From: Dirinaria sp. TL-2023a
Taxonomy: Eukaryota
Assembly: GCA_051941275.1 (NCBI GenBank)
Contig: JAVEBF010000058.1
Coordinates: 1 to 37,039 of the forward strand
DNA: 37,039 nt
Reading direction: 5' to 3'
Positions 5,001 through 30,500 of the stretch are shown here, one piece after another. Each line of letters begins with the position of its first letter. Position 1 is the first letter of the stretch. The position numbers and the translations under genes were made by a program. Below the pieces are notes generated by a model that was not told where the DNA came from, did no database searches, and saw nothing but the letters and a program-made list of their open reading frames with translations.

Positions 5001-8000
5001 TGGAAAGATAACGGTTTTTCGATTCTTTCCGTTTGCAGCGTGAGCAGGTCCTCGAGTTGCTGAAGCATTATGTTCCATGAGACGACGTCAATGATTAGAT
5101 GATGCGCTATGAGCGATAAGATTTGACCGTGTTGTGGGGAGTGCAGAAGCTCGACTGCAAACAGCGGCCCGTTTTCTAAGTCGAGGCTGCTTTGGCTCTC
5201 CGAAAGCACGCGCAGGAGGTCACTGGGACTGTTGACTTGGTGCTCGCGGAATCGGTGAGATTCTGAAGCGGAAATGGTGATTCTTTGACGCCAATTACCG
5301 TCCATATCTCTCTGGAATCTTGCCCTGAGCATTGAGTGCTGCTGGACTATTGTCCTGACAGCATTTTGAATGGCCTTGGCCTCGGTCTTGCGGTTGAAGC
5401 GTAATAACTGACTCTGGTTGAAACGGCTCTCTTTCGTATAATCGCTCGAAGACCCTGCTAATTCGAAATACAGCCTTTGTACGGGAGACAGCTCAAAGAG
5501 TTTGTCAACTTTTTCCTCTGCAAAGAGTGTCTTGCTGTTCTTCGTCGAGTAACCTCTTGAGTCGAGCGTGGTCCCGAGCTGGAACAAGGATTTACTTTGT
5601 AGAACCTCTTGCAGGGAGAGATTGATACCAATCTTGCGGCACCGAGCAATGATGGACATGGAGATCAAAGAATCTCCGCCCTGCGACATGAAAGATCGAC
5701 CAGGGTCGATCTTGTCCACAGCAATGTTGAACACGGAAGCCCAGACTTCTCGAAGTCGCTGCACGGTCTCGGTAATTGGGGCCTGTCCAGAAGCACCTCG
5801 CTCATCGCCGACAATATGCTGATAACTAACCTCGTCAAGACCGTGGATCCACTTCTCGACCTGCTTCCTGTCGAGCTTTCCCGAGACGAGGATTGGGATT
5901 GCCGCCATGATCACCCAAACGGTCGGCATCATGTAGGCAGGTAACTGATCCGATAGCGACTCGCGGACCTTGTCCAATTGGGCTTGCGCCATTTCGAGAG
6001 GCTCCCCTTGAAGAAGCTCACAAGCATTTGACGCTGAGCTTTTAGACGCGAGAGACGGATCAGACATTGAAACGACTGCCACCAAGCGCTCCTTGCACAG
6101 GCCTTCCTTAGGCAGCAGAGCCACTCCATGACGAATTTGATCATGAAGCGCAAACTTGCTCTCGATTTCGCCGAGCTCCATGCGCTGCCCATGCAACTTG
6201 ACCTGGTTATCCCTGCGACCAATGAACGCGATGCTTCCGTCCTCGTTGTATCTCACCACGTCTCCTGTTTTGTAAATTCTCCCCGGGGTCCCTAGCTTCG
6301 CTTCGAAATTTTTGGCCCAAGTAGTGGTCGCGATGAACGCCGCGGCTGTTTTGGCTTCGTCGTGGAGGTACTCTCGGGCGAGGATTGGTCCTCCCAAGAG
6401 AAGCTCACCCACACAACCTAATGGGGCGAGACGGTTATGATTATTGAGATCGGCAATCCACGCGCGACCGTTGGTGTGAGCGAAACCGATATTAGAAGGA
6501 TCTGTAGATTGGGTAACCCTGGAATTTGCTACAGAGATCACAGCAGCCTCGGTTGGACCATATCCGTTGACGAGCTGTACCCGATCGGCCCATTTAAGCA
6601 CGTTGTCCTGCGACAAAGCTTCACCGCCGCAAACCTAGTAAATCGTGAGATCAGCATTCATCTTCTGACGTATCGCAAGAATCCAGCAAAACGTGGCGCA
6701 GGAGTGCAGCCCGCAGAGTGCGCGTCATTGCTTCTGGCAACCGCCCAGACAGCGAGAAATAAGAACAGAATTTTACTCACCAATGTCTTCAAAGATGGAA
6801 CTACGGTCGGGTCGATGAGGCTCGCAACGGAGGGGGTTAAAAAGGCCCATGTTGCACTGAGACCTGCGATAGCTGCGTCGACATCCATCTTCCCTTCGTT
6901 GTTTGGTAGACATACGCAAGCTCCCAATGTCAAAGGCGAGAGATTCTCCATCAGTCCTACATCGAATGTAACTGAGGCAAAGTTGAAGACTCGAGAATTG
7001 ATATCCATCAACATGGCAGCACAGAATGCTTCTGAGCTCGTACAGAACGCTTCGTGTTCCACTACTACCCCCTTCGGGCGTCCGGTAGAGCCCGAAGTAA
7101 AGATAACATACGCTGTGTTGGTACTGGATACCTGGACAACGGAGGCTTCGTAGTCAATAATTGCCTCTCCTTGAACCATTGTCTGCTCATCGACTGGGAT
7201 GACCGTCTCGACGACTTCTGCGTACCGGCTTTGATATTGCGGTGAACACAGTATTATCTTTGCGTTCGTATCCTTCAGGATTTCGGAGTGGCGAGTCATA
7301 GGATGTGACGGGTCAAGAGGCACGATAGCTCCACCAGCCATAAGAACAGCCAATTGTGCAACAATCGCCCACCGGGACTTGTCCATACAGAAAGGGATCA
7401 AGACTTCCGGAGCAACGCCAAGCCTGATTAGGCGTTTGGACAAAATATCAGCATTAGTCCTCAGTTCTGCATAGGTAAATGTCCCATCCCAGGCACATAC
7501 AGCCTGGGTTTGAGGTGTTGCTTCTGCTCGCTGCAGGAAAAGGTTGTGAATGCATCGCTTGACAGGGATTGGATGATAATCGTTCCACTGCGCTATCAAA
7601 TCGACGTCTTGCTCGCTAATGACTTGGATATCGTCCAGGGTGGCGCGGCTACCGGGTGGTGATGAAAACAACTGCCCAAGTATCGATTCAAGCTGGTATA
7701 GTAGCCTTTGAACCAGCCACTTGGAGAGCATAGTTTCATCATAATGAGCATCGACGTGAATGCTTGATCCACCCATGTTGCATTCTATGACAAGCGGATA
7801 CGTGAAGAAGTCGGAGCTCACACCCGAGCCTTGAGGATGCCACATCTTTGATTCGTCTTGGGCGCCGGCTGTTTGGATGATCAGGAGATTCTGAAAATCA
7901 CACGCTCTTGCCGCCTCCGTGCCGAGCCTGCGGATGTTCTGCAGGCCCGTATGCTGGTAAGGGATGACGTCCGTAGCCATCCGATGAATGCTCTGCAAAA

Positions 8001-11000
8001 ACTCCGCAATAGTGCATGACGCACTTGTCCGGATCCTGGAAGGGACCGTAGTCAGCGTGGGCCCTACCATGTCAATCACTCCGTGGATAGGGATATCGCG
8101 TCCGGTCATGGTCTCGCCAAACACCACATCGTCGCTCCCAGTATGCGCTGACAATAGTATGGCCCACGCCGCTCTGATCATTGTTGGTAATGTGATGCTG
8201 CTCATAGCTGGTCTTTGGGGGAGCTGGACAGTATACGATAAAAGTTTGCTGCGATTGTTCTGACCAGCATTCAGCGCCGAGATGGTTGGGAAATGAGAAC
8301 ACTGTAATCCCTCGAACTTCGATTGCCAGAATTCGTTGCAGGCTTTGCTGTCGGTATCCGAAAGGTATCTGATGAATTGCGCGTATGATGCTTTTGGCAC
8401 GGGAGGCGACTCATCAAAGTATATTTCCTCGACTCGTTGTAGCATCCGTGGCATACTCCATCCATCGTATAAAGAGTGGTGGATAGACCAAACGAAGAAT
8501 CGATCTTGCCCAAGGTTCTTTTCGTCAACAATCACCAGCCTCATCAGTGGTGCACCGTTGCGCTCTGGAAGCTGCTTCTGTGATTGAATGGCGGCTTCCA
8601 CATTCTGCGCATGGTGCCATTTGATGTGCTCTTGCTTGAGCACGGCTTGAAGAAGCACGTCTGTATCGCTGCGGATGATTCGCGTCCTCAATATGTCCAT
8701 TTGTCCAACTGCTGTTTCCCACGCTGCTTTGAATTGATCAATATCAAGCGCTTTAGGCAGGCGGAACACATTGTGAGCAACATAGGCTCCGGGTTGCTTG
8801 ATCGACAATGTAACAAGTCCCTCTTGCAGCGCGGTACATGGATAGGCGTCTGCTAATTCGTCCTTCTCAATCTGGCACTGTGCCACGATCTCCTCAATAA
8901 GTTGATCGACGGCGCCAATGCGGTTGAGCAGCGCGAATGGTTTGAGTGAGCTTTCTCCCTCGTCCTCGATGCAAGTGCACGCGTTTGCCATTTCGGAGAA
9001 GTTGGACCTGCGAAAGACATCCTGTACGCTCAGCAAAATCTGCTCCTCGCGTGCGGCGGCAACAAGTTTCATCGCTTGCACGGAATCCCCCCCAACTGCA
9101 AGGTAATTGTCATCGAGAGTGACTGATCCGGGGGCCAATTTCAAATTTGTTTCCCACAATTTTTGAAGGCTCTTTTCCATTGCTGTGGTTGGCGCTCGGT
9201 TCTGGCCGACATTGGCGAGCTTGAACGGGGCCATCATTTCTTTCGGTAACTGTGACACGATCTTGCATAACCTGGACCTATCAAGTTTTCCAGAAGTAGT
9301 CCACGGTATCCGCTCAAGTGGTATGTAGAGAGACGGAATCATGTAGGCAGGCAATGCTCCCGTAAGGTTGTTTTTTAGAGCTTTGCATAAGGACGCGGCT
9401 TGTTCAGACATAGGCAGAAGCAGTGGATCTAAGTCCACCTTGGTAGACTTCGCTTCTGGGAGCTCCTTTCGTGGAAGATTCTCCAACTGGCCAGCAGGTC
9501 TAGGATCAGTGAAGAAAACCGCCAGTGTCGGTCGTTGGTCTGCGGGTGCAACCATCTCGACAGCGGTCTGGATATTTTCAGGCAGCTTTTCCTTGACGCG
9601 GTGTTCTATTTCGCCCAGTTCAATCCTGAGCCCATTGAGTTTGATTTGAGTATCTTTTCGTGAAATGTACACTAAATTGCCGTCCGAATTATAGCGTACG
9701 AGATCGCCTGTTTTGTAAATCCTTCGTTCAGGGGCAGGATCACTGTCTTGACCGTTTTCAAGGCCCGTCATCCAAGCGGGAGGAGGAACGAATGCCTTCG
9801 CTGTTTTCTCCTTTTCGTTCAGGTAGCCCCGTGCCACGGTGTTTCCCTGTAACACAAGTTCGCCAATACTGCCAATGGGCATCAATTGGCTGTGGTCCTG
9901 TGGATGCACCACCCAACTTCGACATCCTACAGCGCGGCCAATCACTGCGGATTCGTCATTCATAACAAACCCATATTCATCCACTTTGATACTGGTGGTT
10001 GCTATGACGGCGCATTCGCTCGGCCCATATGCATTTACCAAGATAACCTTCCCACGCCATTTGGCAATATGTCTTGCTTGCATCGCTTCTCCTCCCGTTA
10101 CAAGGACTTTCAAGCTAGGAACGGTCTCTGGCTCCAAGATATCCGCCACCGAGGGAGTCAGCAGCGTCCAATTGACGGACATACGATTTATTGCCCCAGG
10201 AATGTCGTTCATACGTTCTTCCTCACTGGGTATACAGATACACCCACCGACGATCAGGGTTGTAAGAATTTCCATGATTGAGGCGTCAAAGCACAGATTC
10301 GAGAATTGCATTACACGTGAACCTTCACGCATGGCGATCGCGGATGCATGCTCAGTAGCGCTTGTTGCGAACGCGCGATGAGAGATGATTGTGCCTTTCG
10401 GTAAACCTGTTGTACCGCTTGTAAAGATCAAATAAGCTGTATTGTCTGGTGTCACCTTGACGCTGACATTGTCGAGAACAGGCTTCGGCTCTGTGTTTAG
10501 GCTCTTATCGACAATGAAGGTGGCCACCTCGGGGTATTCGGTGAACCTCTTCTCGTATTTCGAAGAACAGAGGATAAGGCGCGCATTGACACTGTTCAGT
10601 ATGTATTTTATCCGACTCTCTGGATGCGAGGGTTCGAGAGCAACGAATGCGCCGCCTGCAAAAAGAACACCAAGCATGCCTACGATTGCCCAAGTCGTCT
10701 TCTCAAAGCAGAGCGGTACATAAACCTCCGGTCCGACTCCCAGCGCTACAAGGTGTTTGGAAAGCCGTCTGGATAGGTCCAGAAGCGCTGGAAAGGTAAG
10801 GTCCAAGTCCCATGAGCATACGGCTGGCGAGGTTGGCAGCAAAGACTGGCCCCGCTGGTAAATCACGTCGTGAACACATTCGTCCAAAATCGGGAGCGGG
10901 TCTTCGTTCCACTCCAAGATCTTTCGTTTATGGCTTTCCCCACAGGCCTCGAGGGCTCCAATTCCCTGTTCTGAGCTGTCAAGATGCAGCATGGAATTCA

Positions 11001-14000
11001 ATATCTGATCAAAGGTCTCTAATATATTTTGTGCATGGCCATCGTCAAGGCAATGCGTCCAGTAATTGAAGTGTATGGAGATACCAGTCTCGTAAGCTTC
11101 TACGTTGACCGTTAGATCATATTCTGAAGGGTCGTAAGCGTCAAGTATATCAAGTGCTATGCCTTGACTGCCTGTTTTCCCTGAGTCTGGACGCCGCTGA
11201 TATGTGAAAGCGGTATTGAAGATCGATTTACTTGAGAGTTGCAGTTTATGCTGCAAATCACCCAAATAGAAGGCTTGGTGATTCGTGCCTTGAGCATGAT
11301 CGTCTCGAATTTGCTCGAGTGCACTCCTAACTGGTGTGTCGGTGTCACAGTCTATCCTGCAGATGAGCATGGAGATGAAGATTCCGACAGCGCTTTCAAT
11401 ATTCTCAAGAGGGACATCTCGGCCAGAATGAAGGTAGCCAAAACAGACATCGTCACGACCTGTGTAAGCGCGCAAGACCAGAGCCCAGACAAATTGTAAT
11501 GCGTTGGACAAGGTCACGCTATTTTTGGAGCAAAACGAATGTAGCTCTGGAAGCTCTCTGATATCTAGCTCAACTGTCTGTAATTGTTTACTGGCTTCCG
11601 TGCTGTCGCCTAGGGCTGGGAAGTAACAAGGCTCAACATTCTCGAGATAGCGGTGCCAATAGGCTATATCACTTTCGTGGGAACTCTTGTTGATATAGGC
11701 TATGTAGTCGGAATATGGAAGAACTTTGTCGCCAGGATCTTGTGATTCGGCGCAGAAGTCGGTCAAATCCCGGAATATTATTGGTATTGATGTCCCGTCG
11801 ACAATCGAATGACTCATTTCAAGCTTGCAGTATAGCCGGCCTTCCGCTGCTGCGGCTATTGTTAATCGATGGGGCAGCTGACCTTGAACGAATGTAAGCG
11901 GTTCTTGCTTCTTGAGATACTTTACTGCGTTGGAGGAATCGCAGGAAAGCCTATAAGACAAATTCGTTAGTAGTGTTATAACAATGGAGACGGAGTGCGG
12001 TGATAGCTTTCAAGAAGCACTTGAAGCTCAAAAGAGTCCATTGCACTATGAGCTAACAGCAAGGCAACGGACAGGACGAGAGCACGGATGGAACTCCACC
12101 GAGCCACTACGCAAGCGTACGCCCATTACCGCGTCATCTGATTTCATGGCCAATCCAAGTTTTGAAGCTTGAACAAGTTTTTGTGGCTCCAATTCAAAAA
12201 CACCACCACGGATTTCGAGCAGGCTAAGGTGTACAACACGCTGGGCAAATGGCAATGATTTAAATACTTACGGAACGATATTCGGCGATACGTGTTTCAG
12301 AACGGCTTGATCCATGAGACCTTCCTGCGACAGGCTTTTAATGAATATGGTCCTGAGCGCAGAATGCTTTGCGACAACCTTTCGCCAGGCATTTGCGAGC
12401 TTACTAGGGTCGACAGGAGTAAGTGGATTTGCGGAGCTGACTGTGAAGATAGATTGGTACATGTATTGTCCATTGTCCTTGATCTGGCTCAGTAAAAGCC
12501 CACGCTGGATCGGCGAGCAACCATAGACATTCTCGATATCACCGATTGATTCGAGGCCTATGGCCGACAACCGTTCTCGCAGCGACTCCATGATACCATA
12601 TCTGAGAGGTAAGAGAGGGAAGCTATCAAGGGTCGCTTGAGGTTCCATTTTCATGAGCAGCTGAGAAGCAGAGCGAAGAGAATTCTCAAGCTCAGTAACC
12701 CAGTGTCGGATACGAGGCTGGTACTTCATATTCTTGTTATAGTCAAGGCTTAATTTCAGTCTGTGCTCTGATATCGAAGCTGACAGTTCGAAGAGTGCAA
12801 ACCGCGGGACCGACGAGCCAATATCGAAGTTGGTCAAAGAGTCATTGACTGGCTGAAGCAAAGAATGGCTCTTTTTTAACATGTTCTCATGACCCAGATA
12901 GTTGAAAGCGATCTCCATCGGCCAATGGCTTGCAAAGTCGGTTTTGCTATCCTCTGCTAGCATTCGATGCGCAAAATACTGACGTCCCTTGTCCACTATG
13001 CGAGCCCTTTGATCTTTTACCCATCGAATAATTCTCGTGACCTCCTGTTCCTGGCGTGCTTCAGTAGGAACGAAAATTGGGCTGATAGTGGTGAACCATC
13101 CCACTGTATTTGTCAAGTCAAGCTTCGCATCCCAAGGCTCACGGCCGTGACCTTCATTGAAGACCGCAGGTATAGATTCTCGATCCGAAAATGCTCGGCA
13201 AAAGGAATGAAGAATACAGCCAAGCAGTACATCAACGATATCAGTCTGAAGCGAGCGATGACAAGGTCCTAGAAGACATGTCGTTGTTTCCTCATCGATA
13301 GCAAAGTCCAATGTGGAAACATCGCCGTAGACGTTAGGACGCTCTGACATACCCCAGTAAGCGAAGTCAGGCGTCGCAACTTCATCAGGAAAGTATATGC
13401 CGTTCGATGTCTCCCAACTGACTCGTTCATCCTGAAGGCGTGACCAGCTCTGGAACGGAAGGGAGAGCTGGGTTGTGGTTTTACCCGACACGAGCAATCC
13501 CTCAAGATCCTCCAGAATGATGCCCCATGAGACAACGTCCACAACAAGATGGTGCACAACAAGCGAAAGAACTTGTGACCCGCTCTCGCCAAATTCGAAC
13601 AGATCAGCTCTGTACAACGGTCCATTGGTGACGTCGAGATTTTTCTGACTAGCCTCAATGAGAGAGCTCATCTGCTTCGGAGAGTATGTGCCAGCATGTG
13701 CCACGAAATGGTGGGAGTTCAGAGGTCGCCTAGTCAGTTTTTGCATCCAGACACCGTCTTTGGATTTCTCAAAACTTGCATTGAGCATTGAGTGCACCTT
13801 ACTCAGCTCCTGGATCGCATGCGATACAGTTTCCGGTTCCTTCTTTTCAGTCAAAGTGACAACCATGCTTTGATTGAAGTAATTCACATGATCACCCACC
13901 CATTCGAAAAATAGCTTTTGTATTGGGGCTAGGCTGAATAGCTTCTCGAATTCCTCAGCGGCAAACGCCGAATTCTGGGGTAAAGTCACCCGACAGGCTA

Positions 14001-17000
14001 GGTCTGAGATCGATTGGCAACGTATAATATCCTGAACTGTTACTCCAAGACCTGCTGCTCGGCATTGAGATGAAACCTGAAGCGCTGCTAAAGAATCGCC
14101 GCCGAGGAAGTAAAAGCTGTTGTCAAGACCAATTTGCTCCATGGGTAGATGTAGGACTTTTGACCAGATTCTTTGTAAATGTTGTTCAATTTCTGAACCC
14201 TGAATGTCAAAACTCTCTCTCCCTGTTCGAAAGATTCCAGCAAAATCGTCTTCAGTCATTTCCTCGAGCCATAATATTATTCGTCTCCTGTCCAGCTTTC
14301 CGCTCGGTAGCAAAGGGATCTCTTGAAGAACCACCCAATTCGAGCAGACCATATACGGCGGCAGGTGATTAGAAAGGTACTCTCGGGCGCTTTTAACGGG
14401 AAGTTCGGACTCCTTCGCGGCCACTACATCAAGACCTTGATGCAAGATGCCGGACTGCATCTCCCCTTGAAGCGAAAGTACTCCTACAAGCTTTTTCTCG
14501 CAAAGGCCATGGGTTGGGACAACAGCTAGCGCGTGTTTGATATCCTGGACCTGACCCATGTGGTACTCCACTTCACCGAGCTCCAACCTCTGACCATGGA
14601 GCTTTGTTTGGCTATCCTTCCGGCCCACATAAAGCAACGAGCCGTCTTCGTCGTATTTGACCAAGTCCCCTGTTTTATACATCAAGGGCTTCGCTAAAGC
14701 TGGAGAGCAATGCAAGTCATTCACGCATTCAGGGCAAGAAACAAAAGACTCTGCGGTCTTTAAAGGGTTTTTCTGATAACCAGATGCTAAGATTGGACCG
14801 ACGACCACCAGCTCTCCTACGGCGCCAACAGGCACTAATTGGTCATGGCGGTGCTGATTGACAATAAAGCAGTGACTTGAAACCGCTCGGCCAATGTTCG
14901 AAGGCTGAGAAGTCGAGCACACATTTGGATTAACGGTGGCGACTACTGCACACTCGCTTGGACCGTACGCGTTAATAAGATGCGTCTTGCCAGCCCAAAT
15001 AGCAAGATTATTCCGAGTCATACTCTCGCCGCCGAGTACAAGGGTATCGAGGCTTGGAACGCTGGATGGCGTAATCATTTGAACGAAAGATGGTGTAAGG
15101 AGAGCCCAGGTCACGTTCATATCATTAATGACTTTCGTTATGTCGTTCAGCCGTGCCCGTTCATCGGGGATGCACACACAGCCGCCGAACATCAACGTCG
15201 TGAATATTTCTACCATCGATGCATCAAACGTATAGGATGCGAATTGAAGTACTCGGGAAGTTGACTGCATTCGCATAGCTGGTCCATGTGCCGTGGCTCC
15301 GCTCACAAATGCGGTATGGGAGACTAAGGTACCTTTCGGTTTCCCAGTCGAGCCGCTCGTGAATACAATATATGCAATGTCATTTGGTGAACAGGACGCA
15401 AGATAGGTAGGTTTCTGAGGGAGACGAGCGACATTTTGCATCTCCACAAGATGGACCTTAACTCCCAAGGATTCGCAGACCTCTTTGTACTTAGATGATG
15501 AGAGGACACATTTTGCATCCACATCAGCAATGATGCTTTGTAACCGTGCATTTGGAGAACTCCCATCAATGGCCACAAAACTTGCACCAATCTTGAGAAT
15601 TGCAAGCATTGCAATTACAGCCAAAGCTGACTTCTCGAAACAAACAGGTACTTTCGAACGATGGCCAAGACCAAGCTCTTGTAGATGACGCGCTAGAGAA
15701 TTAGCCAGATTATCAAGTTCCGAATACGTTAAGTTAGCATCCCATGAACAGAGAGCTGGAGCCAGGGTCGCCGCAGCATTGACTCTTTCTTGTATCATGT
15801 CATGAATACCCCTGTTGATAACGGCGTAAGGCTTTGTATTCCATCGCTTGATCAACGTCCTATCATCATTTGTGATGGTCTGAATTTCACAGAGTCGCGA
15901 AGAAGCTCTGTCGGATTCACTCAGCCGCGTCAGAGTACATCCGAAATAATCAAACAGTTTCTGGATTTGCCACAGAGGGATAACTTCAGAGTCAAAGTAT
16001 GCAGTAGCTTTTACGCCAGAATTGCTGACGTCAAAAGATATTGTAAGGGCGTAGGTGAAAAAGTCGGTCGCAGAGGTTCCTGCTTGTTCTGGCTTCCAGA
16101 AATCGTTGTCCGAACCGGAGTCGCCGCTATTGATGCTGATCAGGTTCTGAAACTCACAGGCCTTTGCGGTATCAGAACTGAGTCGCTTTATACGCTGGAG
16201 ACCCATATATTGGAATGGCATAGCCTCCGTACAGTCGCCTTGCACGTTCGTCAAAAACTCAGCGATTGTTAGCTCAGAATTTGTCCGAACACGCACAGGT
16301 ATCGTTGCAAAAGCAGGACCAATCATGTCAACGATGCCGAATATTGGGGCATCGCGGCCATTTACTGTTTCAGCATATGTCACATCATCTGAATTAGAGT
16401 ATGCAGAGATTGTCAGAGCCCATGCCGCTCGTATCAGACAAGGCATAGTATATTCACCACCCGAATTCTGAGGAACAGAAGTGAAGTGCGAGAATGAGTC
16501 TGTCACACGTGGCTGATATGTTGATTTCGGCAGCATTGGATATTGTGGAGATGCTGTGTCTGCTAATCTTGATCGCCAGAAGTCTTCCGACGCAGCTCCG
16601 TCAATGCTTGTTAGATATTGCATGAATTGTGAATAGGACGGTACATCGGCTGCCTCAAGTCTTTCGGCCCCGTTATAATGAGCCTCAACTTTGTCTAAGA
16701 CAAGCTCAAAAGACCACCCGTCATACAGTGAATGATGTATGGTCCACACAAAGCAAGCTTCGTTTTCACTGCCTCCAGCAATTGCGTATGCTGTGAGACT
16801 GGCACCATTCGAAGTAGGCTTTATGCGGACAGCGTCCGGTATTTCTGTCACATTTTCGTATCCGCACCAGTCGACTTTCTCATTGATCACAACTTGGAAA
16901 AAGCCTAGATTTTCCATGTAGACAATGCGGGTTCTTAAAATAGCTTCCGCAGCAACAACAGCCTCCCAAGCTGCTTTGAACTTATCGAGGTCTATCGAAG

Positions 17001-20000
17001 GCAGGCGGTATACGTTGTGGGCAACATAGGCTCCTGGTTGTTTGTCACTTGACACAATTAAGCCTTCTTGGATCGCGGTAGCAGGATATACGTCTTCAAT
17101 GTCGTTCTCAGCAACTTTGCACAACTCTGATATGTCAGTAATCATCTGGCTGAGAGGCAAGGTAGCTGGAAGAAGCTCAAAGGGTTTAGGGCCTGCTGTG
17201 GAAGCCTTTTGATCAAGCGCGTCTGAAGCGTACGCATTTTCACACATTCGTGAAAGCGTCGCGTTCCGGAATATGTCAGCTACAGTAAGATTTATGTTCT
17301 TGGATCTTGCAGCAGTAACTAGACGGATTGCTGCAATCGAATCCGCGCCCTAGCCTCAAAGTCAGCTACAGATTCTTTAGAGATTCGTTCGGCATTAATT
17401 GAAGACATCTTTAGCAGTCATGATCGACCCTGGAATGAGGCATATGCTATCATTCGCGCCAAAAAAGGATAAAGGCACGTGATGCAACGATCAGGCCCAA
17501 GGAACGAAATTAGGGAGATGACATACCATACGGAAGAACTGTGCATCCATGCCAATAGAACCTGCTGGAAGGCTGAGTACAGACTCCCAAAGTTGAGCCA
17601 AAGTTTTCTCAATTTCAGTAGAAGGTTCTCGCCCAGTCGCACCGGCAAGCCTGAAAAGCGCTGTTTGATTCTCGGTCATCGAATTGGCCATAGCTTGCAA
17701 CTGTTTTCTATCAAGTTTTCCGGAGCTCGTAAGAGGTATTCTTGCCAAAGGAATGAAGAGTGTAGGGACCATATGCTTTGGAAGAGCTCCTGCTAAGGAG
17801 GCCTCTAGCTTTTGGAAAATGTCGCGCAGCGTGGTCGACATTGGCATCAGCCCGTCCTCGGGAACAGTCGCAGAGGCATTGCTATCGTTCTGTGGGCACA
17901 GAAAGAGTGCTAGAGCTTTGGTGCTCGTTTGATTGTCACCAGGCCTAATCAGTTCAACCGCGAAATGCCAATCGGTTTCGAGATGGATCCGAACATGATA
18001 TTCAATCTCTCCCAGCTCGATTCGCTGGCCATTCAACTTGACCTGCTGGTCTTTGCGTCCAATATAACAAATTGTCCCATCCGAGTTGTAGCGTACCAAG
18101 TCGCCGGTCTTGTACATTCGTCTTGGAGCGTTACTATAATTGACTTCTGGGCCATTGAGTGGATTATCAATGAAGACCTGAGCAGTCTTCTCTGGGTCGT
18201 TGAGATAACCCCTGGCAAGGATCGGGCCTTCTATTGCCAATTCTCCCTCACATCCGATCGCCACTAAGCGACGATGGTCCGATGGGTCAACGATCCACGA
18301 TACACTTCCTACAGAGCGGCCGATGCTAGATGCATCACTTGACCCTCGTATGTCTGTCCTGTGGGTTGCATTGATGGAACACTCCGACGGTCCGTACTGG
18401 TTGTGGACTTCGACCGCATCTCCCCATACTTCCAACACAGTCTTCGTGAGTGCTTCGCCACCTAAGCCGATCTTCTTTATGGTTGGCATCTCAGCAGGGT
18501 TCAAGTATGTAGCAACAGTTGGAGTCAGATCCATGAAGTTTGCTTCGAGTCTCGAAGCGGCGCCTGCGAGGTCGTTGAAACGATCGTGGTCGGACGGTAC
18601 ACATACTGTTCCTCCGCGCATGAGCGTGGTGAAAATCTCTTCGAGACTGTTATCGAAAGTGTAGCTCGCAAATTGAAGGCATTTTGTACTAGAGCCGAAG
18701 CCAAGAGCAGAACCATGCGCCTCGGAGCTCGTGACGAGGGCCCGGTGCTCCAGCACTACCCCTTTAGGCTTCCCTGTACTGCCACTCGTGTAGATCACGC
18801 AGCATGGATTATGAGGCTGTACTGACGTACAAAGATAGGGCTGGGCTGAAAGGCTATCGAGGAATTTTCGGTCGATTGACACAATTTGATGACCCATTCC
18901 AGTAAAAGTAGCTTGGTAGCAGGATGATGTCAGGATTACAGGTGCTTTAGTATCCTGAATACGCATTTCAAGAGCGGTGGTCGGATGCATTGGATCCAAA
19001 GACACAAAGGCTCCACCAGCTTGGAGGACACCAAGCATTGCAATAATCGTATATGCCGATTTTTCGAAACAGAGACAGACGTACGTTTCTGGACCAATGC
19101 CGAGAAGTTTGAGATAGCTGGCAAGCTTTCCTGCAATCATATTTAATTCGGCGTATGTGAAGTTACCATCCCATGCGCGAATAGCTGCCGCGTTAGGATG
19201 AAGCACCATTCGTTCTTGAATAACCTCATGCACACACTTGTTGATGGTTTCTGGCATCTCTTTATTCCAGCTCGATATCTGCTGGTAGTCCGAATCACTG
19301 ACACATTGGACCTGGTCAACAGCAAGCTCTGATGATTTCACAATAGTTCGTAGAACCTGTAAGAAGGTGTTCGACACGTTGTTTGCGTGTCCGTCCGATA
19401 AGCAATCTGTCCAGTAGTCCAAGTCAACAAGTGCTTTTCCATCAGAAATCTCGATATTGATTGAGACGCTGTATTCTGTTGGATCATAGTACGGAAAGCA
19501 GTCATCAAACGAGATCGCGTGCTGTTCGCTTGCGGTGGCAAGAGGCACTTTGCGATATGATAACGACGTATTAAATAGCGAGGCGCCCGGGAGCTTGAGA
19601 GCGTGCAATACTTCTGATAACGCAGTTTGGCAGTGATCCTGGCCGTCTGACAGATCTGTCTGAACTTGCCGCATGGTCGCTATAAGTGGTGTTTCCGGCT
19701 CAAAAACAACACGACATACGACCATATTGACCAAATAACCCACAAGATCTTCGATACCCTGTATCGAAGGATCTCGCACCGACATCAAATAGCCGTAGGA
19801 CACGTCATCAGAGCCTGTATAGCACCGAAGCAACATAGCCCAAGCCATGTGAAAGACGTTGGCCATTGTCAAACCGTGAAGGTCGCAAAACAATTGAATA
19901 TCTCTCAGATCGTCCACTTGCAGATGCTTGGAGTGTAACTGCCGTTGCACACACGCGGCGTCATCGAGTTTGGGGAAGATTGTGGGCTCGATATTATTGA

Positions 20001-23000
20001 GATAGGTTTTCCAGTACCCAATACCAGCGTGAGTTGACTTGCTTTGCAGAAAATGAATGTAATCGCTGTACAACGGCCCTGTTTCATGCAAGAACCGCCC
20101 CTCGTAAAAGCATACAAGCTCTCGGAAGATAATGGACATGGAAGCCCCATCCTTAAGGATAACCGAGTCAGCACACTCCAAAGCCATCCCAACATATCAT
20201 GATGAATAAGGGTGACATGACCAGGGAAAGAGGCTTGCCAGGCTCTGCAGTTATACAGGAGGGAAACGCATGAGCAGGAAAAGATTACTGACTATAATAG
20301 TATGGCTGATCTCCAGCCTACAAAAGACGCTGCCGGCTGAGGTATCGCAAATGGTTAATTGATGTGGTGGGCTCTGATTAGTTTGTTCCATAGGTGCTTG
20401 GAAGCGAAGTAATTGTATGGCATCTGCATCAGTCTTGCATGTCAGGCGCACAATGTTCGCCTTGATTTTTCTGAGAACAATTTGATCGTATAGTACATTC
20501 TCTTGACTTGAACTTTCGACGAATAATGTACGAAGTGAAGCATGGCGATCCACAATTTTCTGCCACGCATCCGCAACTCTGTTACTGTAGACTGGATCAC
20601 CGCATGTTGAGTTTATTTTGTAAACGCCAGCAACCGCATAGACATCCGCATCGCGCTGTTTGCTTATCAAAAGACCCTGCTGTATCTGTGAGCACCTGTA
20701 TATATCTTCAACATTACCTATGTCTAATATTCCAACGCGAGGTAGGCTGTTACTCAGTAGCTTTTCTAGTTTATCATACGTTAGTGAAAGTAGGGGAAAA
20801 TCGCTCAATGTGGGCTGATAGCCCATTTCTGCAAGCCTCGACGGCTGTGTAATGAGAATATCGTGGCAGTGTGAGATCCAAGAATTGATCCTCTCCTGGT
20901 GATGCATATGGCGGTTGAAAGTAAATGAGAAGCGAAGTTTGCCTTGTGCAATGACTGCGGAGATCTCGAACAGGCCGAAGCGAGGAGTGTGAGAGCCAAC
21001 ATCTGCATTGCCACCTGCTCCTCGAGCTTCTCCCGCAAGCTCCTCAACGGGTAACAGCAAAGAATCTTCACGTTCGAGCTGCTGGTAGACTCCGAGATAA
21101 TTGAATGTTATTTCAAGAGGCCAATGACTCGCGAATCTCTTTGAACCTTTGGACGTAAGCATGCGGCTGGCGAAGTAGTGTCTTCCATTGGCAGGAACGC
21201 TACGACGGAAGTCTTTGACCCGCCGCAGTACATCAAAAAAATCTCCAGATGCGGCTGAATCGACATACACTGGGTACATCGTTGTGAACCATCCCACAGT
21301 CCGTGATAAATCAATGTTTTGATCCCAAACCTCGCGGCCATGACCTTCATTAAAGATGGTCGGGGCTGTACGGTCATTGAATACCATCGAGAATGAATGC
21401 AGCATTGCGGCGATGAGTATGTCTACTGTGTCGGTCCGCATAGTTTCGTGGCACTTGGAGATTATGATATCCGTAGCGAAGGCATCTAGCTCGAAGCCTT
21501 CCCGGCGGACCTCTCCATAATGATTGGGTCGGTCTTGCATCCCCCAGTACGCATAGCTCTGTGTCGGTATATCACGAATTGGTAAGAGACTCTGAAGCGG
21601 AAGTTTATGAGAGTGTTCGACTTGCATCGCACACCATGTTTGAAATGACAACGAAACCTCAGTAGGTGCTGCCGGCTGTGGGCTCGTCAGTAGCTCCTCC
21701 AGATCCTGTAGAATGATTCGCCAAGATACGAGATCGATGACAAGATGGTGACTTGTCATGAACAGCAACTGACTACCATTCTCAAGCTGAAATGTATCGA
21801 CTGCGAAAAGAGGTCCGTTCACCAGATCAAGTGAGGCTTGAGTCTCTGACATGAGTGGAATAGCGTCTTCCTTGGAGGAGCACTTGTGGACATGGAAGGA
21901 ATGAGACCCCGTCACATCGGTTGTAATGCGCTGTTTCCACTCATCGTCTGAAACTGATAAGTCAAATCTTGCCCGGAGCATCGAATGACGACCCACGATG
22001 GTCTTCACCGCTTGGTGCAGCTTTGCGGGCTGAATGGATCGGGCCAAGCGCACGAACACACTTTGATTGAAGTGGCCTTCGCCACGATTAGGAAGCTCAA
22101 AGTACAAGCTTTGAATTGGAGAGAGGTCAAACTCTTCTTCGATCTTCTCGGTTTGGATGGTATCGGAGGCGACTGTTCTGGCCAGGCTTGCGAGGTGAGT
22201 TATAGATTTAGCGCTAAGGATATCCTTGACGGCAAGACCAATGCCGTTCTTTTTACATTGACTTTGGACCATCATAGCTGTGATACTATCACCACCCAAC
22301 GCCAACCAAGAATTCTTCAGGGTGATTCGTGTCGGTTTCAAATTCAGAGCATGGCCCCAGAAGTCTCGTAATTGATTCTCGATCTTCGTTGCCGGTTTCT
22401 CATCGCATTCGCCTCTCTCGATCCATTGAGAATAGGTTTCCTCGCTCATTTCATGAAGTCGATTGAGAATGGCTTTGCGATCCAATTTGCCAGACCGTAA
22501 GAGCGGTATAGATCGTACCACGAGCCAAATGGATGGAAGCATAAAGGTAGGCAATCGACTTGACAGCCTTTGGCGTGCTACAGCAATCGTTGGTTGAGCT
22601 TTATCTTGTTCTAGTCTGTCAACGAGCTGCAATTCATTCGCATTCAACATGTTTTCAGCCGACAATACGCCCTGCAAAGAGATCACTGCTACAAGACGCT
22701 GTTTACAGAACCCTGCCTTAGGCAGTAAGACTACCGATTGACGGATAGCCGATTCTGCCTTGAGGTGATGTTCAATCTCTCCGAGCTCCACCCTTTGTCC
22801 ATGAACCTTCACTTGCGTGTCTTTGCGCCCAAGAAAATATAACATTCCATCAGACGTGCGATATCTGACAAGATCACCAGTCTTATACATTCGACGAGTC
22901 AACACCTGCAGCTGACCTTTACCAGGCCCTGGATCCACTGTATCATTCTGGAAGGGAACCTCAACGAATGAATCACTTGTACGTTCTGAATCACCGAGGT

Positions 23001-25294
23001 AGCCTCGTGCTAGTGTAGGACCTTCTATTGCAAGCTCCGCGACGCATCCTGGTGGAACAAGTCGTGTATGGTCACCAGGGTCTACCAGCCAGCATTGCAC
23101 ACCAATTCCACAGCCGATCAAAGTTGGTTGCTGATCTAGTGCGACGTTCATATTGACCACGGCAGCCACTGAGGTCTCGGCAGGGCCGTAACCATTCATC
23201 AAATTGATAGACGACCATGTTGCCATGTGTTCTTCACTCATTGCCTCGCCCCTGGGGATCGATAGAATTAGCTTAGGCTTTCAATTGGGTAGCGTGTTGC
23301 GAGTGAAGAATGTACTTAAGGTCGCGTTCAGAGTGTGGTCCCTGCAGGAAGTCTTGCACACCTTCCGTATTGCGAGAGCAAGGATATATATGTAGGATAT
23401 CACTCACATCATAAGCAGAGATTTCAGGCTTGGTACCAGAGACGGGTTGAAAAAACTGGCCACCGAAGGAGTAAGCGCCGCCCAGTCAACGCGCATTTGG
23501 TTCACAACAGAAGTGAGGTCGTTCACGCGCGAATCCTCGTCAGGAACACAAATCGTAGCTCCCACCATAAGGGTCGTAAGCACCTCAAGAATGGAGGCAT
23601 CGAATACGTAGGATGCATCTGCAGGAACGTTGAGTCAGTAAAGCTTAGTAGAAGAGTACCAATGCGACAAGTAGTAGATCCTGAGTAGAACCGGATTCCG
23701 ACAACATTACGTTCGAAGTGCCAAAGGGAAATCCAGTCAAAGTTACCAATCTGTTGAACACGGGCCATTCCCTAGTATTGTACTAGCCAGCGATCTCCAT
23801 CCCGCACCACGATATGCTAAACTGTATTTCTGTCTTGAGGACGTGGTGGATATGATGAGAGGGAAAGCATATCAGACTTAGCTACTTACACTGCAGGACC
23901 CGCGAATCCGCTTTCATACGAAATTTTGGCGCATGAGACTTGGCGGCTGAGCAGTAAGCGCGATGCTCAATCACGACACCTTTAGGTTCACCGGTCGAGC
24001 CAGACGTCCATAAAACATAGGCAATATTTCCTGGTTTAGCTCGCGATTGCTTCTCCAGCGAAACATCGGTTCTGGATTTGAAGGTCTCGATATCTATTGG
24101 CAGAGTTCTTTCTGCGACAGAAGAAAGCTCGGCCAAAAATTTTCGCGAGCACAGTACAAGACGAGCTTGTAGCTTTAGAACAAGCCCTTGGACACGGCTG
24201 GTGGGCTGGGTAGGATCTAGGGGGCAGAAGGCTGCTCCTGCCTCGAGAACCGCCAGCATTGCGACTGTCGACCAGATGGATTTTTCAAAGCATAAAGCGA
24301 CAACGCTTTCCGGGCCAATACCAAAGTCCGTAAGTACATGCGCCAGTGACTGTACATGGGCCCATAAATCTCGATACGTCAAGCTTCCGTCCCATGCGCA
24401 TACAGCTTCACGTTCGGGATGTATTAGAACCCTCTCATAAATAACATCGTGTATACACGCATCGGTCGGCTCATCGGGAGCTTGACTCCATTTCCGGATC
24501 TGTCGCTCATGGTCATCGTTGATGTAATTGACATCGAAAAGCGATATTTGAGGAGAGACGATTAGGGTAGAGAGAATCGTTTCGAGAGTCTTCGCAAGGC
24601 TTTCGAGGTACAGCGTAGACACGAAGGACTCTTGCGATGCCAATTTGAGATCCGGGTTGTTGGGATTTAGGTTCGCAAAGAGCCAAACTTCCCCCTGAAA
24701 TCATAGTTAGTTCACAGGTAACCGCAGGACAAGTGATGTTGGAAAGAGCTTCACCTTTGTAAGGTTCGGATCCTGCAGCTTTTGCATCTGCTCGTCAAGC
24801 GCTTGCGCTTCCTCTTGCATCCAGATCGTTGTATTGCAATGAAAAGAATCTGATGAAGGACGCAAACCCGAGGTTATATTGCTTGGAGAGGACTGTGGCT
24901 GCCGAGCATAAGTAATATCTGCTTGTGCCTTGTGAATGTATGCCAGTAGTGGTTCGTTTCCATACAAAGACATTTGAAACTCAGATCGATGTTGTTGCCA
25001 TGCGGTAGACTCTGAATCCGCAGATGCGCGATTGCATCGTCGAATATGGAAGCATACATCATCCTGCCCAGTGAAGCAGCGTAAAAGGAGGGCCCAAGCG
25101 GTGCATAACAGGCCCTCGAATTGTGCTCCATTCCTTGCACAGAGATGGTGAAGCTCTTTGGTTTGCTCCAATCTTACTCCAGTGGCTAGGAAACAGTGTG
25201 CAGAGCTGCGTTTACCGTCCAACAAAGGTAGCTTGCACAGAGCATGGCGAGAGAAAGCCTCTCGCTCCTGCCTGGGTGTCACACTTCCTGGCAT
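1..25294 (-). CDS. NPS4: Multimodular fungal NRPS, NPS4/NRPS4 (fusahexin synthetase)-like, 3'-truncated by the window edge. Spliced CDS: join(25294-24755, 24694-23890, 23618-23408, 23251-20293, 20151-17527, 17349-12272, 11950-6781, 6634-2957, 2893-2236, 2089-<1) = 23813 nt, >7937 aa
   Basis: Five A domains with TSGS/TTGxPKG, YGPxE, YKTGD and SGKLDR motifs; six G(G/A)DS carrier motifs; three E domains (HHLxxDxVSW, EG/SHGRE/D, GWFT); C domains (SHTIIDG, HHSLYDG x2, SHSIVDG, NHAVIDG); terminal SHAQYDG. All nine introns have GT..AG ends and CTRAY-type branch points, and every junction preserves frame. The symbol is a family-level assignment from architecture and the divergent ABC neighbour, not from a database search. 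Confidence 0.95.
2090..2235 (-). other. NRPS intron 9 (146 nt)
   Basis: GTGAGT..CTAAT..TCTCAG; phase 1, restores FFELGGDS. Confidence 0.92.
2236..2893 (-). CDS. NRPS exon 9: end of C5, long A-less linker, first half of T6
   Basis: Acceptor CTAAC..TTTAG|TAC completes DPTEYAITVNV; ends DDTFFEL(G) at donor GTGAGT (2235). Confidence 0.9.
2894..2956 (-). other. NRPS intron 8 (63 nt)
   Basis: GTACGT..CTAAC..ATTTAG; phase 0, restores DPTEY. Confidence 0.92.
2957..6634 (-). CDS. NRPS exon 8: rest of A5, T5, E5, most of C5
   Basis: Acceptor TACTAG|GTT TGC GGC GGT GAA (VCGGE); QGGDSL, HHLIIDVVSW, NHAVIDGES; donor GAG|GTACGT at 2956. Confidence 0.95.
6635..6780 (-). other. NRPS intron 7 (146 nt)
   Basis: GTGAGT..CTGAT..TACTAG; phase 0, restores LKTLVCGGEA. 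Confidence 0.92.
6781..11950 (-). CDS. NRPS exon 7: C3, A4, T4, C4, first half of A5
   Basis: SHSIVDGTS, FTSGTTGLPKG, VGGDSV, HHSLYDGWS, FTSGSTGRPKG; donor TTG|GTGAGT at 6780. Confidence 0.95.
11951..12271 (-). other. NRPS intron 6 (321 nt)
   Basis: GTAAGT..CTAAC..TTATAG; phase 2. Confidence 0.88.
12272..17349 (-). CDS. NRPS exon 6: T2 (GADS), C2, A3, T3, E3, start of C3
   Basis: Acceptor CTGAC..GCTAG|GGC GCG GAT TCG; HHSLYDGWS, FTSGSTGKPKG, LGGDSL, HHLVVDVVSW; donor CC|GTAAGT at 12271. Confidence 0.95.
17350..17526 (-). other. NRPS intron 5 (177 nt)
   Basis: GTATGT..CTGAC..GGCTAG; phase 0, restores FFRMGADS. Confidence 0.9.
17527..20151 (-). CDS. NRPS exon 5: rest of C1, A2, first half of T2
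   Basis: Starts DGASM, completing SHTIIDG; YTSGSTGKPKG, FDNSLEE, NQYGPSE; ends FFRM|GTATGT. Confidence 0.93.
20152..20292 (-). other. NRPS intron 4 (141 nt)
   Basis: GTCAGT..CTGAC..CTTAAG; phase 0, restores catalytic SHTIIDG. Confidence 0.88.
20293..23251 (-). CDS. NRPS exon 4: rest of A1, T1, E1, first half of C1
   Basis: NGYGPAE, YKTGDL, LGGDSI, HHLVIDLVSW, NEGHGRE; ends SHTII at donor GTCAGT (20292). Confidence 0.93.
23252..23407 (-). other. NRPS intron 3 (156 nt)
   Basis: GTGAGT..CTAAT..CCCCAG; phase 2, restores LLMMGEAM. Confidence 0.88.
23408..23618 (-). CDS. NRPS exon 3: A1 substrate-pocket segment (absent from the ORF track)
   Basis: Acceptor CTGAC..CCTGCAG|AT; translates (Y)ASYVFDASILEVLTTLMVGATICVP...WAALTPSVASFFNPSLVPSLKSLLM; donor AT|GTGAGT at 23407. 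Confidence 0.9.
23619..23889 (-). other. NRPS intron 2 (271 nt)
   Basis: GTAAGT..CTGAC..CTGCAG; phase 1, restores LQYASYVFD. Confidence 0.9.
23890..24694 (-). CDS. NRPS exon 2: end of partial C domain and start of A1
   Basis: Acceptor CTAAC..TTTCAG|GGG; CIHDVIYER, AYVLWTSGSTGEPKG; donor T|GTAAGT at 23889. Confidence 0.9.
24695..24754 (-). other. NRPS intron 1 (60 nt)
   Basis: GTGAAG..CTAAC..TTTCAG; phase 0. Confidence 0.8.
24755..25294 (-). CDS. NRPS exon 1: N-terminal partial condensation domain
   Basis: First in-frame ATG at 25294 (MPGSVTPRQ); LLCTAWALLLRCFTGQDDVCF resembles the C-domain second-half motif AWAMLLRCYTGSDDVSY; donor AAG|GTGAAG at 24754. Confidence 0.75.
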
Positions 25295-27570: not shown

Positions 27571-30500
27571 ATGTCGTTAGCATCATGTACCGTCGTCGAT
27601 AATACCTTCGGTCCCCACGCGAAATATTGCCGCGGCGGCTTTGATTTTACTTTGCTGTTTGAAGAAAGCATCCTTTCCGTGGTCCCGTTGATACTGTTAC
27701 TCGGCATTGTCCCTCTTCGCATTCTCTACCTGGTCCGGAGGACGATTAAGGCAGATGGGGGTCTGCTATTGCCATCCAAGCTGGTGAGCCTCCTCCGTTG
27801 AAGTTTCATGTCCGGGCGAGCGAAAGGCTGACGCTCCCTCAAATCAGATCTTATACACCATATATGGCGTGATTCAGGTTGCTCTCGTTGTGTTATGGGC
27901 AAGCCCAACGGCCAAGAGAACGAAAGCCTCAGTTGCAAATGCAGCCTTAACACTTGTGGGCTCGCTTGCTTTGGCGCTTCTCTCGTTTGTCGAGCATCAG
28001 AGGACCATCCGGCCTTCCCTTATAACGGAATTTTACCTGGGTCTGTCGCTCCTATTCGATTCAGTGAGGATTAGAACGTTGTGGCTACAAAGATACAATG
28101 GCACCGTTGCCGCAACCACTACAGCATCACTTGTGATTAAGTTGATACTGTTCTGGGTCGAGGCCGTTGGGAAGCGGCGTGTGTTGCGCCCAGAGTGGCA
28201 GAGACAATCGCCTGAGGCCACAAGCGGCCTATGGGGCAAATTGTTTTTTTGGTGGTTGAATCCACTCTTCTTGACGGGCTTTGCAAGGTCGCTGTCGATG
28301 GAGGACATGATTCCGCTGGACAAACATCTCACCTCCGACTATCTCTATCACACATTGCACAAAGCCTGGTCGAGGATGGGACACCAACGCTCATTGCTTG
28401 CGGTTTATTTCCTAGACTTGAAGTGGCATCTTCTGTCTGTAGTGCCTCCTCGTCTAGCTCTCATCGGCTTCACCTTTTGTCAGCCATTTCTTATTCAAAG
28501 AGCGGTAAATTTCATGGGGCAGCCAGTGAACGAAAGCACGACCAATGTTGGGTATGGACTGATTGGCGCGTATTTTCTTGTGTATTGCGGCATTGCCTTG
28601 ACAACAGGCCAATACCAGCATCTAACGTATCGTGCTATTACCATGGCCAGAGGCGGTCTGGTGTCGATGCTTTTCGCTAAAACGTCGTTTTTGGAGGCCA
28701 ATGCCGTTGACTCTGCTGCATCACTGACCTTGATGAGCGCTGATATTGAGAGGATCACAACTGGTTGGCAGACTATGCATGAGATCTGGGCCAACGTGAT
28801 AGAAATTGCACTTGCGATATATTTGCTTGAACGTCAGCTTGGAGTGGCTTGTGTGATCCCGCTCGCGGTCGCAATATGTAAGTCTCTTTCCTGAAGAACA
28901 GTGTCACGGTGGTCATAAAGGTAGACCTCCCCCAAGAGGCGAATCTTAGGATTGCCTGCTTGGGGGCATTGCGACACCTTGACGTACATCAGCGTGTTGG
29001 CACCTCGAGACTGGGTCGCAGAGAGGCTGGCGTTGGCTAAGTAACCCGTTGTCAAGTAGTGGGATTGTGTTAGAGCAAGAAGTCAGAAACATGGTTTCAC
29101 GAACAAAACTGCAAGCAGCTTGCCGAGACCAAGTCTTCTGCGAGTGCCACCCGCTGTGGCAGATAGGTTGCGATACGCTGCTAACTACATTTTGTGTTCT
29201 TAGGTTCTTTTCTCGGCTCAATCTTTGTCGTGAATCTGGTCGTCTACAGGCAAGGCCTGTGGCTCGAAGCAATGGAAAAACGAATCAGCGCCACGACTGT
29301 GATGCTCGGATCGATGAAGCGCATCAAGATGTGCGGTTTGTCAGAGATATTCTTCGAGAATGTGCATTCACTTCGGCTGAAGGAATTGCGTGTCTCAAAA
29401 CGTTTCCGAAGACTGCTCATTGGAAGTATTTTCTTCGCATTCACAACTCCCGTAATCGCGCCTGTATTGACTTTTACTGTCTTCTCTCTGCTGGCACTCA
29501 GAAACGCCGATTCTACCTTGAACACCGAAAAGGCTTTTGCGTCGCTTTCGCTTTTCGCACTTTTGACCGACCCGCTGTCGTCATTGGTGATGGCTTTGAC
29601 GACTTTTGCTGGTTCGTTCGGATGCTTCGGCCGTATCCAAACTTTTCTAGAGACTCGAGAACATCAGGATAAATGCATCAAACATCTGGATGCAGACTTG
29701 GACGACTCGGAGCCTTCTCAAACCAGCGGCAGCTCGGATGAAAGTCTAGGCTGGACCGAAAAATGGACTGAAAAGCCTATCGCAACTTCTCTGATTAAGA
29801 AGAGCGTGGGCCCTTTGCCGAAGGCCAGTGGCGATGCCCTACGTATATTGGATGGAAGCTTCGGCTGGGACACGGAAAAGGCCCCTGTGATATCTTCAAT
29901 TCGCATGAAGGTGCCTCGAGGGAAACTGACAGTGATTGTGGGTCCTGTAGGTTGTGGGAAATCAGTTTTATTAAAATCGCTCCTGGGCGAAGTTCCAACT
30001 CTCTCAGGAACTGTCAAACATTTATTCTCGGGCGACATTTCTTACTGTGATCAATCTCCATTTCATATGAATGGCACAATTCGAGATAGCATACTTGGGT
30101 CCTCAAGGATGGACGATCGATGGTACAGTACCGTTTTGGAGATGTGTGATCTGGAAGACGATCTGCAACAATTGCCCCAAGGCGATCAGACAAGCATCGG
30201 AAGCAAAGGTATCGCGCTGAGTGGTGGCCAAAGCCAGCGCGTTGCTTTAGCACGGGCTGTTTATGCTCGGAATGACCTTTGTGTTCTCGACGACGTGTTC
30301 AGTGGTCTTGATAGTGATACTGAGCACCGCATATTTCACAATCTCTTAGGCTTCGACGGGCTCTTGCGGCGACAGGGCACCACCATCATCCTTGCTTCTT
30401 CTTCCAACAGAAGGCTTCCATTCGCGGACCACATCATCGCCCTGAACGAAAAAGGCAATATCGCAGAGCAGGGAAGCTTCGAGGACCTGAATACGAGCGG

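Follow-up and report, generated by a model that had tools for sequence, protein, structure and literature searches.

The stretch analysed here (the window) comprises 37,039 nucleotides of contig JAVEBF010000058.1 from Dirinaria sp. TL-2023a (assembly GCA_051941275.1). It carries on its minus strand one long, intron-containing fungal gene for a nonribosomal peptide synthetase (NRPS), whose 3′ end lies beyond the window edge, together with a divergently oriented gene for an ABC transporter (Table 1). The Pfam families AMP-binding, PP-binding and Condensation are found in each large open reading frame (ORF) of the NRPS and, combined with the core motifs, they give the order A1-T1-E1-C2-A2-T2-C3-A3-T3-E3-C4-A4-T4-C5-A5-T5-E5-C6-T6-C, in which A stands for adenylation, T for carrier, E for epimerisation and C for condensation domains. 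No A domain precedes T6, which makes a C-T-C tail whose last C domain extends to the window edge. In a motif scan, HHxxxDxxSW, which we take as the mark of an epimerase, is present after T1, T3 and T5 only, that is, in every other module. The model TIGR01720 matches after T1 (1.2e-15; 57.8 bits, under the curated 74.2) and after T5 (1.4e-9, likewise under the curated cut-off); for the exon that bears E3, the family matches considered are the best 25 of 90.

Our analysis centres on A2, the second adenylation domain. The original prediction had read four motif strings at 18366..18660 (FDNSLEE, FMDLTPT, IGLGGE and NQYGPSECSIN) and derived from them the ten-position specificity code DNEDGGQINK, and all of these are present in the minus-strand translation of 17491-20187, which also contains SGKLDRK. 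The code residues are D235, N236, E239, D278, G299, G301, Q322, I330, N331 and K517. The position numbers are those we take to apply to GrsA-PheA, anchored on the conserved core motifs; the GrsA structure 1amu was only the 16th-ranked match, and the numbering follows motif positions, not a residue-by-residue structure alignment. Core motifs A3-A10 are all retained in an uninterrupted exon. The other four A domains had been described as largely hydrophobic at these positions, and their codes agree: DALALMGVAK for A1, DAVLVGAVVK for A3, DAMLVGAVIK for A4 and DVMFVGGVIK for A5, those of A3 and A4 being obtained by hidden Markov model alignment to A2 (hmmalign) and those of A1 and A5 by eye across introns. 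A2 is the sole polar pocket of the five. Literature searches with its code and related fungal codes as text strings returned no match, and neither did pairs of textbook bacterial codes. Once spliced, the adjoining T2 reads FFRM-GADSIAAIRL, with the carrier serine within GADS; this motif (~17340-17349) is GGDS in orthologues, and the serine is retained.

The gene belongs to a recognisable family. In a WARP cluster an ABC transporter gene lies upstream of an NRPS gene, and every other module of the NRPS carries an epimerase; the cyclic D,L peptides made, for the most part hydrophobic, are required for surface water repellence (bioRxiv 10.64898/2026.07.13.738209). This bears out the earlier placing of the enzyme in a normally hydrophobic, alternating D,L peptide family. 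Among known synthetases, HcpA and Pes1 make fungisporins, Fusarium NRPS4 makes fusahexin and Apiospora NRPS4 makes apiosporins (10.64898/2026.07.13.738209). The window has the transporter, the alternate epimerases, the C-T-C tail and orthology to a characterised member, and we assign its gene, from these sequence features, as a new lichen-fungus member of the NRPS4/HcpA/Pes1 (WARP) family with five A domains. By BLASTP, all window exons are colinear with the 7639-aa Fusarium graminearum protein P0402 at 41-47% identity, and P0402 is 81% identical to the F. poae protein that its source names FpNRPS4. On the A-domain tree, the window A2 groups with the second A domains of NRPS4 orthologues (support 0.986). 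A third homologue search, seeded with residues 1293-2170 of P0225, yielded the best 120 of 592 scored proteins; the full-length orthologues among the matches listed include F. graminearum, F. poae FpNRPS4, the NRPS 4 proteins of F. piperis and F. equiseti, and proteins of dermatophytes, Talaromyces stipitatus, several Leotiomycetes, Dothideomycetes and one lichen fungus. A search of representatives gave relatives of up to ~8000 residues. For the downstream half of the gene, the best named match is a metagenome-assembled genome of the lichen fungus Cornicularia normoerica (63-67% identity), and the nearest relatives of the window are P0124 (72% identity over C2-A2) and the P0038 type (62%), both with the code DNEDSGQINK.

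The closest characterised system is F. graminearum NRPS4, whose domains follow the same order down to the C-T-C tail; an ABC transporter accompanies both clusters (excerpts of PMC10967133 and PMC11677700). Its codes are DVTLVGCVVK (A1), DNADAGCVNK (A2), DAMLVGAVVK (A3), DAMLVGAVIK (A4) and DIGFVGGVFK (A5), with an epimerase following A1, A3 and A5 and none following A2 or A4. The A4 code is thus identical to that of the window and the A3 code nearly so, while A1 and A5 differ. The two A2 codes share the frame D-N-x-D-x-G-x-x-N-K and differ at 239, 299, 322 and 330, so that six of ten positions are common. HcpA and Pes1 of Penicillium and Aspergillus share with the window enzyme the alternate-module epimerase, the ABC transporter and D,L cyclic peptides as products, and differ from it in having four modules and tetrapeptide products. 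A relative from A. fumigatus, P0161, which we take to be Pes1 from recall and from its source name 'Nonribosomal peptide synthetase 1', aligns with the window at 36-43% identity; its pockets are hydrophobic except at position 239 of the third A domain, which is Lys. In P0161, moreover, the second A domain (residues 1869-2250) looks degenerate, with an altered A3 motif and no A10 lysine, which would fit loading of T2 by A1. Apiospora arundinis NRPS4, compared here by its description, is also a WARP synthetase whose product includes a residue described as Lys; it differs in having six modules and heptapeptide products, and the Lys, at the last module, ends in a 4-imidazolidinone ring.

Relatives of A2 show which parts of the pocket are held constant. 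A total of 457 proteins contained 2059 A-domain cores, and codes were read from the 1932 of these that are full-length, a sample biased towards Fusarium by the third homologue search. The start DN.D occurs in 126 of the 1932 cores, with A or S at position 239 in 96 of them and E in 30, and it is found at the second A domain in 95 of the 97 proteins that measure 6800 aa or more and show the order A-E-A-A-E-A-A; of the two exceptions, one reads DTEDVGVINK and the other comes from a different family. Within this sample, N236, D278, G301 and N331 characterise A2 across the family. Thinning at 90% identity left 74 A2-clade domains, of which 22 carry E239. All 74 have G301, N331 and K517; overall, 62 of 373 columns do not vary. 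Relatives whose A-domain cores are 55-77% identical to that of the window keep 7-10 of the 10 code positions, so the pocket is not a chance pattern. On comparison of these codes the pocket has two layers, a fixed frame (D235, N236, D278, G301, N331, K517) and a variable pair at 239 and 322, which is E239/Q322 in the window and A239/C322 in Fusarium. The window pair makes the predicted pocket more polar than that of this one characterised orthologue. The E239 form is found in the window's nearest relatives, in Trichophyton, Microsporum, Nannizzia and Arthroderma, in Patellaria and Glonium, and also in Talaromyces and Rasamsonia (with I322) and Cadophora (with C322). In a FastTree phylogeny, the two clades nearest to that of A2 have Q239/D278 (DVQD.G..NK, support 0.945) and E239/D278 (DVEDVGTIQK, support 0.902); a polar residue at 239 is thus the probable ancestral state, from which A239 would be derived. 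Within the A3-A10 core, no basic column tracks E239 as a salt-bridge partner, in a contrast that is confounded by phylogeny.

Public RNA data indicate that a gene of this kind is expressed. Parts of the A2 exon were found only in public runs labelled lichen metagenome: X1, X2 and X4, three RNA runs of one sample (shares 0.22, 0.16 and 0.09), and X3, one further run (share 0.09). The lichen contigs are 95-99% alike to the window and cover 21-23 of 30 bins, a degree of likeness that points to a close relative, not to the same genome. On the minus strand they contain GT..AG joints at 6632/6779, 23250/23407 and 23618/23890, and a weak one at 17348/17526. The joint 23250/23407 yields ...SLLMM|GEAMS... 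and the joint 6632/6779 yields ...KTL-V-CGGEAL.... Parts of the gene that no contig covers are given no weight in either direction. Because RNA contigs carry these intron joints, the NRPS gene is transcribed and spliced in the close relative.

Table 1. Features of the window and the evidence on which each is placed.
Feature	Position	Strand	Basis
NRPS gene	3..24700	minus	Pfam, core motifs, colinear BLASTP to F. graminearum P0402
A1, code DALALMGVAK	22480..24424	minus	Pfam, by-eye reading across introns
A1 introns	23619-23889 and 23251-23406	minus	spliced in X1 and X2 RNA contigs
E1 epimerisation domain, HHLVIDLVSW	20854..22140	minus	core motif
Putative C2 intron	near 20197-20250	minus	unconfirmed by RNA contigs
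A2 adenylation domain, single exon	17700..19212	minus	AMP-binding 1.1e-60; TIGR01733 7.4e-109
Nine A2 code codons	18370..18654	minus	translation, motif-anchored numbering
D235, N236, E239	18652-18654, 18649-18651, 18640-18642	minus	
D278, G299, G301	18529-18531, 18466-18468, 18460-18462	minus	
Q322, I330, N331	18397-18399, 18373-18375, 18370-18372	minus	
K517 codon of A2 (motif A10, SGKLDRK)	17716..17718	minus	outside 18366-18660
Intron within T2	17349..17525	minus	one X4 contig, 29 letters on one side, weak
A3, code DAVLVGAVVK, then T3 and E3	14289..15762	minus	Pfam, motifs, hmmalign
E3 motif HHLVVDVVSW	near 13554	minus	core motif
A4, code DAMLVGAVIK	9285..10827	minus	Pfam, hmmalign
A5, code DVMFVGGVIK, intron 6633-6778	5875..7122	minus	motifs; joint in X4 contig
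C6, T6 (~1977-2102), terminal C	774..4063	minus	Pfam, motifs
ABC transporter	27788..32250	plus	two ABC_tran, ABC_membrane, weak TMD0 match

We propose, with a probability of roughly 60%, that the window encodes a WARP synthetase in which the E239/Q322 form of A2 selects a polar, non-hydrophobic L-residue. In the proposed mechanism, A2 would adenylate one L-amino acid and load it onto T2, and C2 would then join this residue to the D-residue made by module 1; because no epimerase follows T2, residue 2 would stay in the L configuration. By analogy with fusahexin the end product would probably be a cyclic D-L-D-L-D-L hexapeptide, for which the divergent ABC transporter could serve as exporter. A neutral polar substrate, of the amide, hydroxy or semialdehyde type, is conceivable at somewhat less than even odds; a basic residue (Orn, Lys or Arg), though the leading single class, is on balance unlikely, to the same degree as the Leu- or Pro-like residue of Fusarium, and any other substrate would come as a considerable surprise.

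The case for charge in this pocket starts from bacterial A domains. The original prediction held that Glu239 and Asp278 typify domains activating Lys, Orn or Arg, which is true of bacteria (excerpt of PMC12283262), and the window A2 has both residues. According to the same excerpt, the bacterial Arg consensus is D235, A/V236, E239, D278, I/V/L299, G301, A322, V/I330, T/D331 and K517, with DGEDHGTVVK the code for Lys and DGEDHGTVTK that for Orn, and DAQDLGVVDK accepts both Glu and Gln (PMC12283262). Six of the ten window residues (D235, E239, D278, G301, I330 and K517) fit the Arg consensus; the window domain is fungal, and no more than the general A-domain fold is implied by this likeness. The polar 239 paired with D278 in both sister clades, the lack of a basic column that tracks E239 and the same-direction shifts of 239 and 322 also speak for a polar or basic substrate.

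Several observations weigh against a polar or basic substrate. The remainder of the bacterial Arg consensus (A/V236, I/V/L299, A322, T/D331) is absent, as N236, G299, Q322 and N331 all mismatch. We know of no E239-type A2 domain whose substrate has been established. In a 67-row tree built without the pocket columns, the E239 state changes at least seven times among 64 rows, and these E/A flips among close relatives, exemplified by DNEDSGCINK in Cadophora and DNADSGCVNK in Halenospora, could reflect weak constraint rather than switches of specificity. Coupling between 239 and 322 is not significant: the two shift in the same direction in three to four of six independent pairs and never in the opposite one (sign test, median p 0.125). 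The third A domain of P0161 has the code DVKSVGAVMK, and in the fungisporin line the pes1 product is cyclo(D-Tyr-Tyr-D-Val-Val) and HcpA accepts Val or Ile at its third domain (10.64898/2026.07.13.738209). If the modules are colinear, K239 would thus sit in a fungisporin-type pocket assigned to Val; in the WARP family, charge at 239 is no guide to a charged substrate. Fusahexin, for its part, is cyclo(D-Ala-L-Leu-D-allo-Thr-L-Pro-D-Leu-L-Leu) and contains no basic residue, and its modules 1-4 are assigned to Ala, Leu, Thr and Pro, with module 5 supplying both remaining leucines (excerpt of the review PMC10967133). Because no epimerase lies behind A2, the Fusarium A2 residue must be L-Leu or L-Pro, and because the Fusarium A2 shares six of ten positions with that of the window, the polar frame alone implies no polar or basic substrate unless the Leu assignment is wrong. 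The role of the family in water repellence likewise favours hydrophobic residues (10.64898/2026.07.13.738209).

These points lend themselves to a different explanation, to which we give less than an even chance and which is on the whole unlikely: A2 would load the same neutral residue as in Fusarium, L-Leu as published or L-Pro by another register, E239 and Q322 would be tolerated second-order changes, and the product would be an ordinary hydrophobic WARP peptide. The modules are orthologous with most of the code in common, exchange between E and A at 239 is frequent, even in closely related pairs such as Cadophora and Halenospora, Lys at 239 occurs in a domain assigned to Val, and hydrophobicity is the function of the family. 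Yet a buried Glu together with a Gln would be costly in a Leu pocket, 322 tends to change with 239 (13 of the 22 thinned E239-type domains have Q322), and the invariant frame of N236, D278 and N331 would be odd for Leu. The original prediction had gone the other way and suggested a cationic residue. Under that account, a special case of the polar-residue proposal that we consider rather unlikely, A2 would load Orn, Lys or Arg, whose side chain would stay free, to form a cationic, amphipathic D,L ring with membrane-active or surfactant properties; stacking into nanotubes and permeabilisation of membranes would be further, hypothetical steps. Beyond the E239/D278 hallmark of bacterial Arg, Lys and Orn domains (excerpt of PMC12283262), G299 and G301 leave a roomy pocket, a sister clade also carries E239/D278, and the WARP authors themselves raise stacking of the Ghadiri type (10.64898/2026.07.13.738209). 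Apiosporins moreover contain a residue described as Lys, closed into a 4-imidazolidinone (10.64898/2026.07.13.738209), so the family offers one precedent for a basic building block: this raises the plausibility of a cationic residue and lowers its novelty. That Lys is, however, tied up in its ring and is not a free cation, the family is linked to surface hydrophobicity and not to membrane lysis (10.64898/2026.07.13.738209), and every objection to a polar substrate applies here too.

What survives of the predicted cationic residue is a pocket more polar and acidic than its four neighbours, with the E239/D278 hallmark in place; against it stand a frame that is fixed throughout the family, a Fusarium product devoid of basic residues, the lability of E239 and the four of ten positions that depart from the bacterial consensus. 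A cationic product of the window enzyme is possible, and what backs it is a bacterial rule of thumb that the WARP family bends. It is highly improbable that the pocket is a relic, with A2 inactive or skipped and T2 loaded by a neighbouring A domain. The degenerate second A domain of P0161, which has neither the usual A3 motif nor the A10 lysine, would offer a precedent, and iterative reuse of A domains is stated for the WARP family (10.64898/2026.07.13.738209). The window A2, by contrast, lies in an open exon and retains every core motif as well as the A10 lysine, its pocket is conserved in relatives with 55-77% identical cores, and RNA contigs show transcription and splicing of the gene in a close relative.

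A further reading concerns the register of the fusahexin modules. No other pocket of F. graminearum NRPS4 comes near that of A2 in polarity; outside A2, polar pocket residues are confined to T239 and C322 of A1. The A3 and A4 codes are nearly identical and hydrophobic in both Fusarium and the window, yet they are assigned to D-allo-Thr and L-Pro (excerpt of PMC10967133); unless the register of the modules is shifted, fungal codes carry no information here. It is unlikely, though worth considering, that the invariant polar A2 pocket marks the WARP module that installs a ring-closing residue and that the fusahexin line is one register off. The ring-closing residue would then be Orn, Lys or a glutamate or aminoadipate semialdehyde, leading to an N-acyl N,O- or N,N-acetal. 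Fusahexin would be re-registered with Thr from module 1 (A1, T239), the 'Pro' unit from module 2, the two leucines from modules 3-4 and Ala from module 5, an order that still respects the D/L pattern, and the E239/Q322 form, found here, in dermatophytes and in Talaromyces, would load a different, possibly basic, ring-closing residue. At C-delta the fusahexin 'Pro' unit has the oxidation level of an aldehyde, which would suit entry of a polar, aldehyde-level precursor at A2. The excerpt of PMC11677700 describes a fusahexin cluster of two genes with no oxidase, in which a +H2O analogue is more abundant than fusahexin, and in a synthetic study a Glu delta-aldehyde precursor closes the Thr-Pro bicycle spontaneously, a glutamate origin being argued (excerpt of PMC12340964). 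Against re-registering, the published register is consistent with A5 being used twice, for the two adjacent leucines, and the family lets an A domain load the next carrier.

The substrate of A2 matters beyond this one gene. The proposed role of WARP peptides is to render fungal surfaces water-repellent, and their known products fall into only three families. The E239/Q322 form of the second pocket is widespread, occurring in relatives from lichen fungi, in dermatophytes, in Talaromyces and Rasamsonia and in several Dothideomycetes; the identity of its substrate would tell whether charged or reactive residues are present in some WARPs. The conflict in Fusarium between a polar A2 and its assigned Leu also bears on the origin of the unusual Thr-Pro bicycle of fusahexin. 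Should A2 take Leu or Pro, the finding would be an ordinary one and a further warning about applying bacterial codes to fungi.

Some observations lie to one side of these questions. Two Apiospora proteins, P0016 and P0025, were considered as the apiosporin synthetase and set aside, as they have no epimerase in every other module and represent another type of NRPS. This separate type, with the second-A code DVEDVGTIQK, also includes P0152, P0159, P0163, P0165, P0170, P0178 and P0133 and is conserved in the fetched proteins from Sordariomycetes and one Eurotiomycete; among the codes compared, DVEDVGTIQK is the closest fungal look-alike to the bacterial Lys and Arg codes. In the window, the 17 smaller ORFs scanned hold no further Pfam family, and the frames 24707-25363 and 25946-26929 have no Pfam match. 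The first NRPS exon (23882-24700) and the sequence upstream to ~25363 show no obvious in-frame ATG, and an upstream exon may provide the true start. One X2 contig skips 322 bases at 11950-12273; on the minus strand the ends of the skipped piece read CG..AG, with one letter in excess, and an unusual intron, an alignment slip or divergence of the relative could account for this. Lastly, position 278 of A1 is A in the window and E or Q in relatives of the P0038 type (DAIELMAVAK, DAIQLMAVAK); since it varies among the nearest relatives, the first residue of the peptide may differ between close species.

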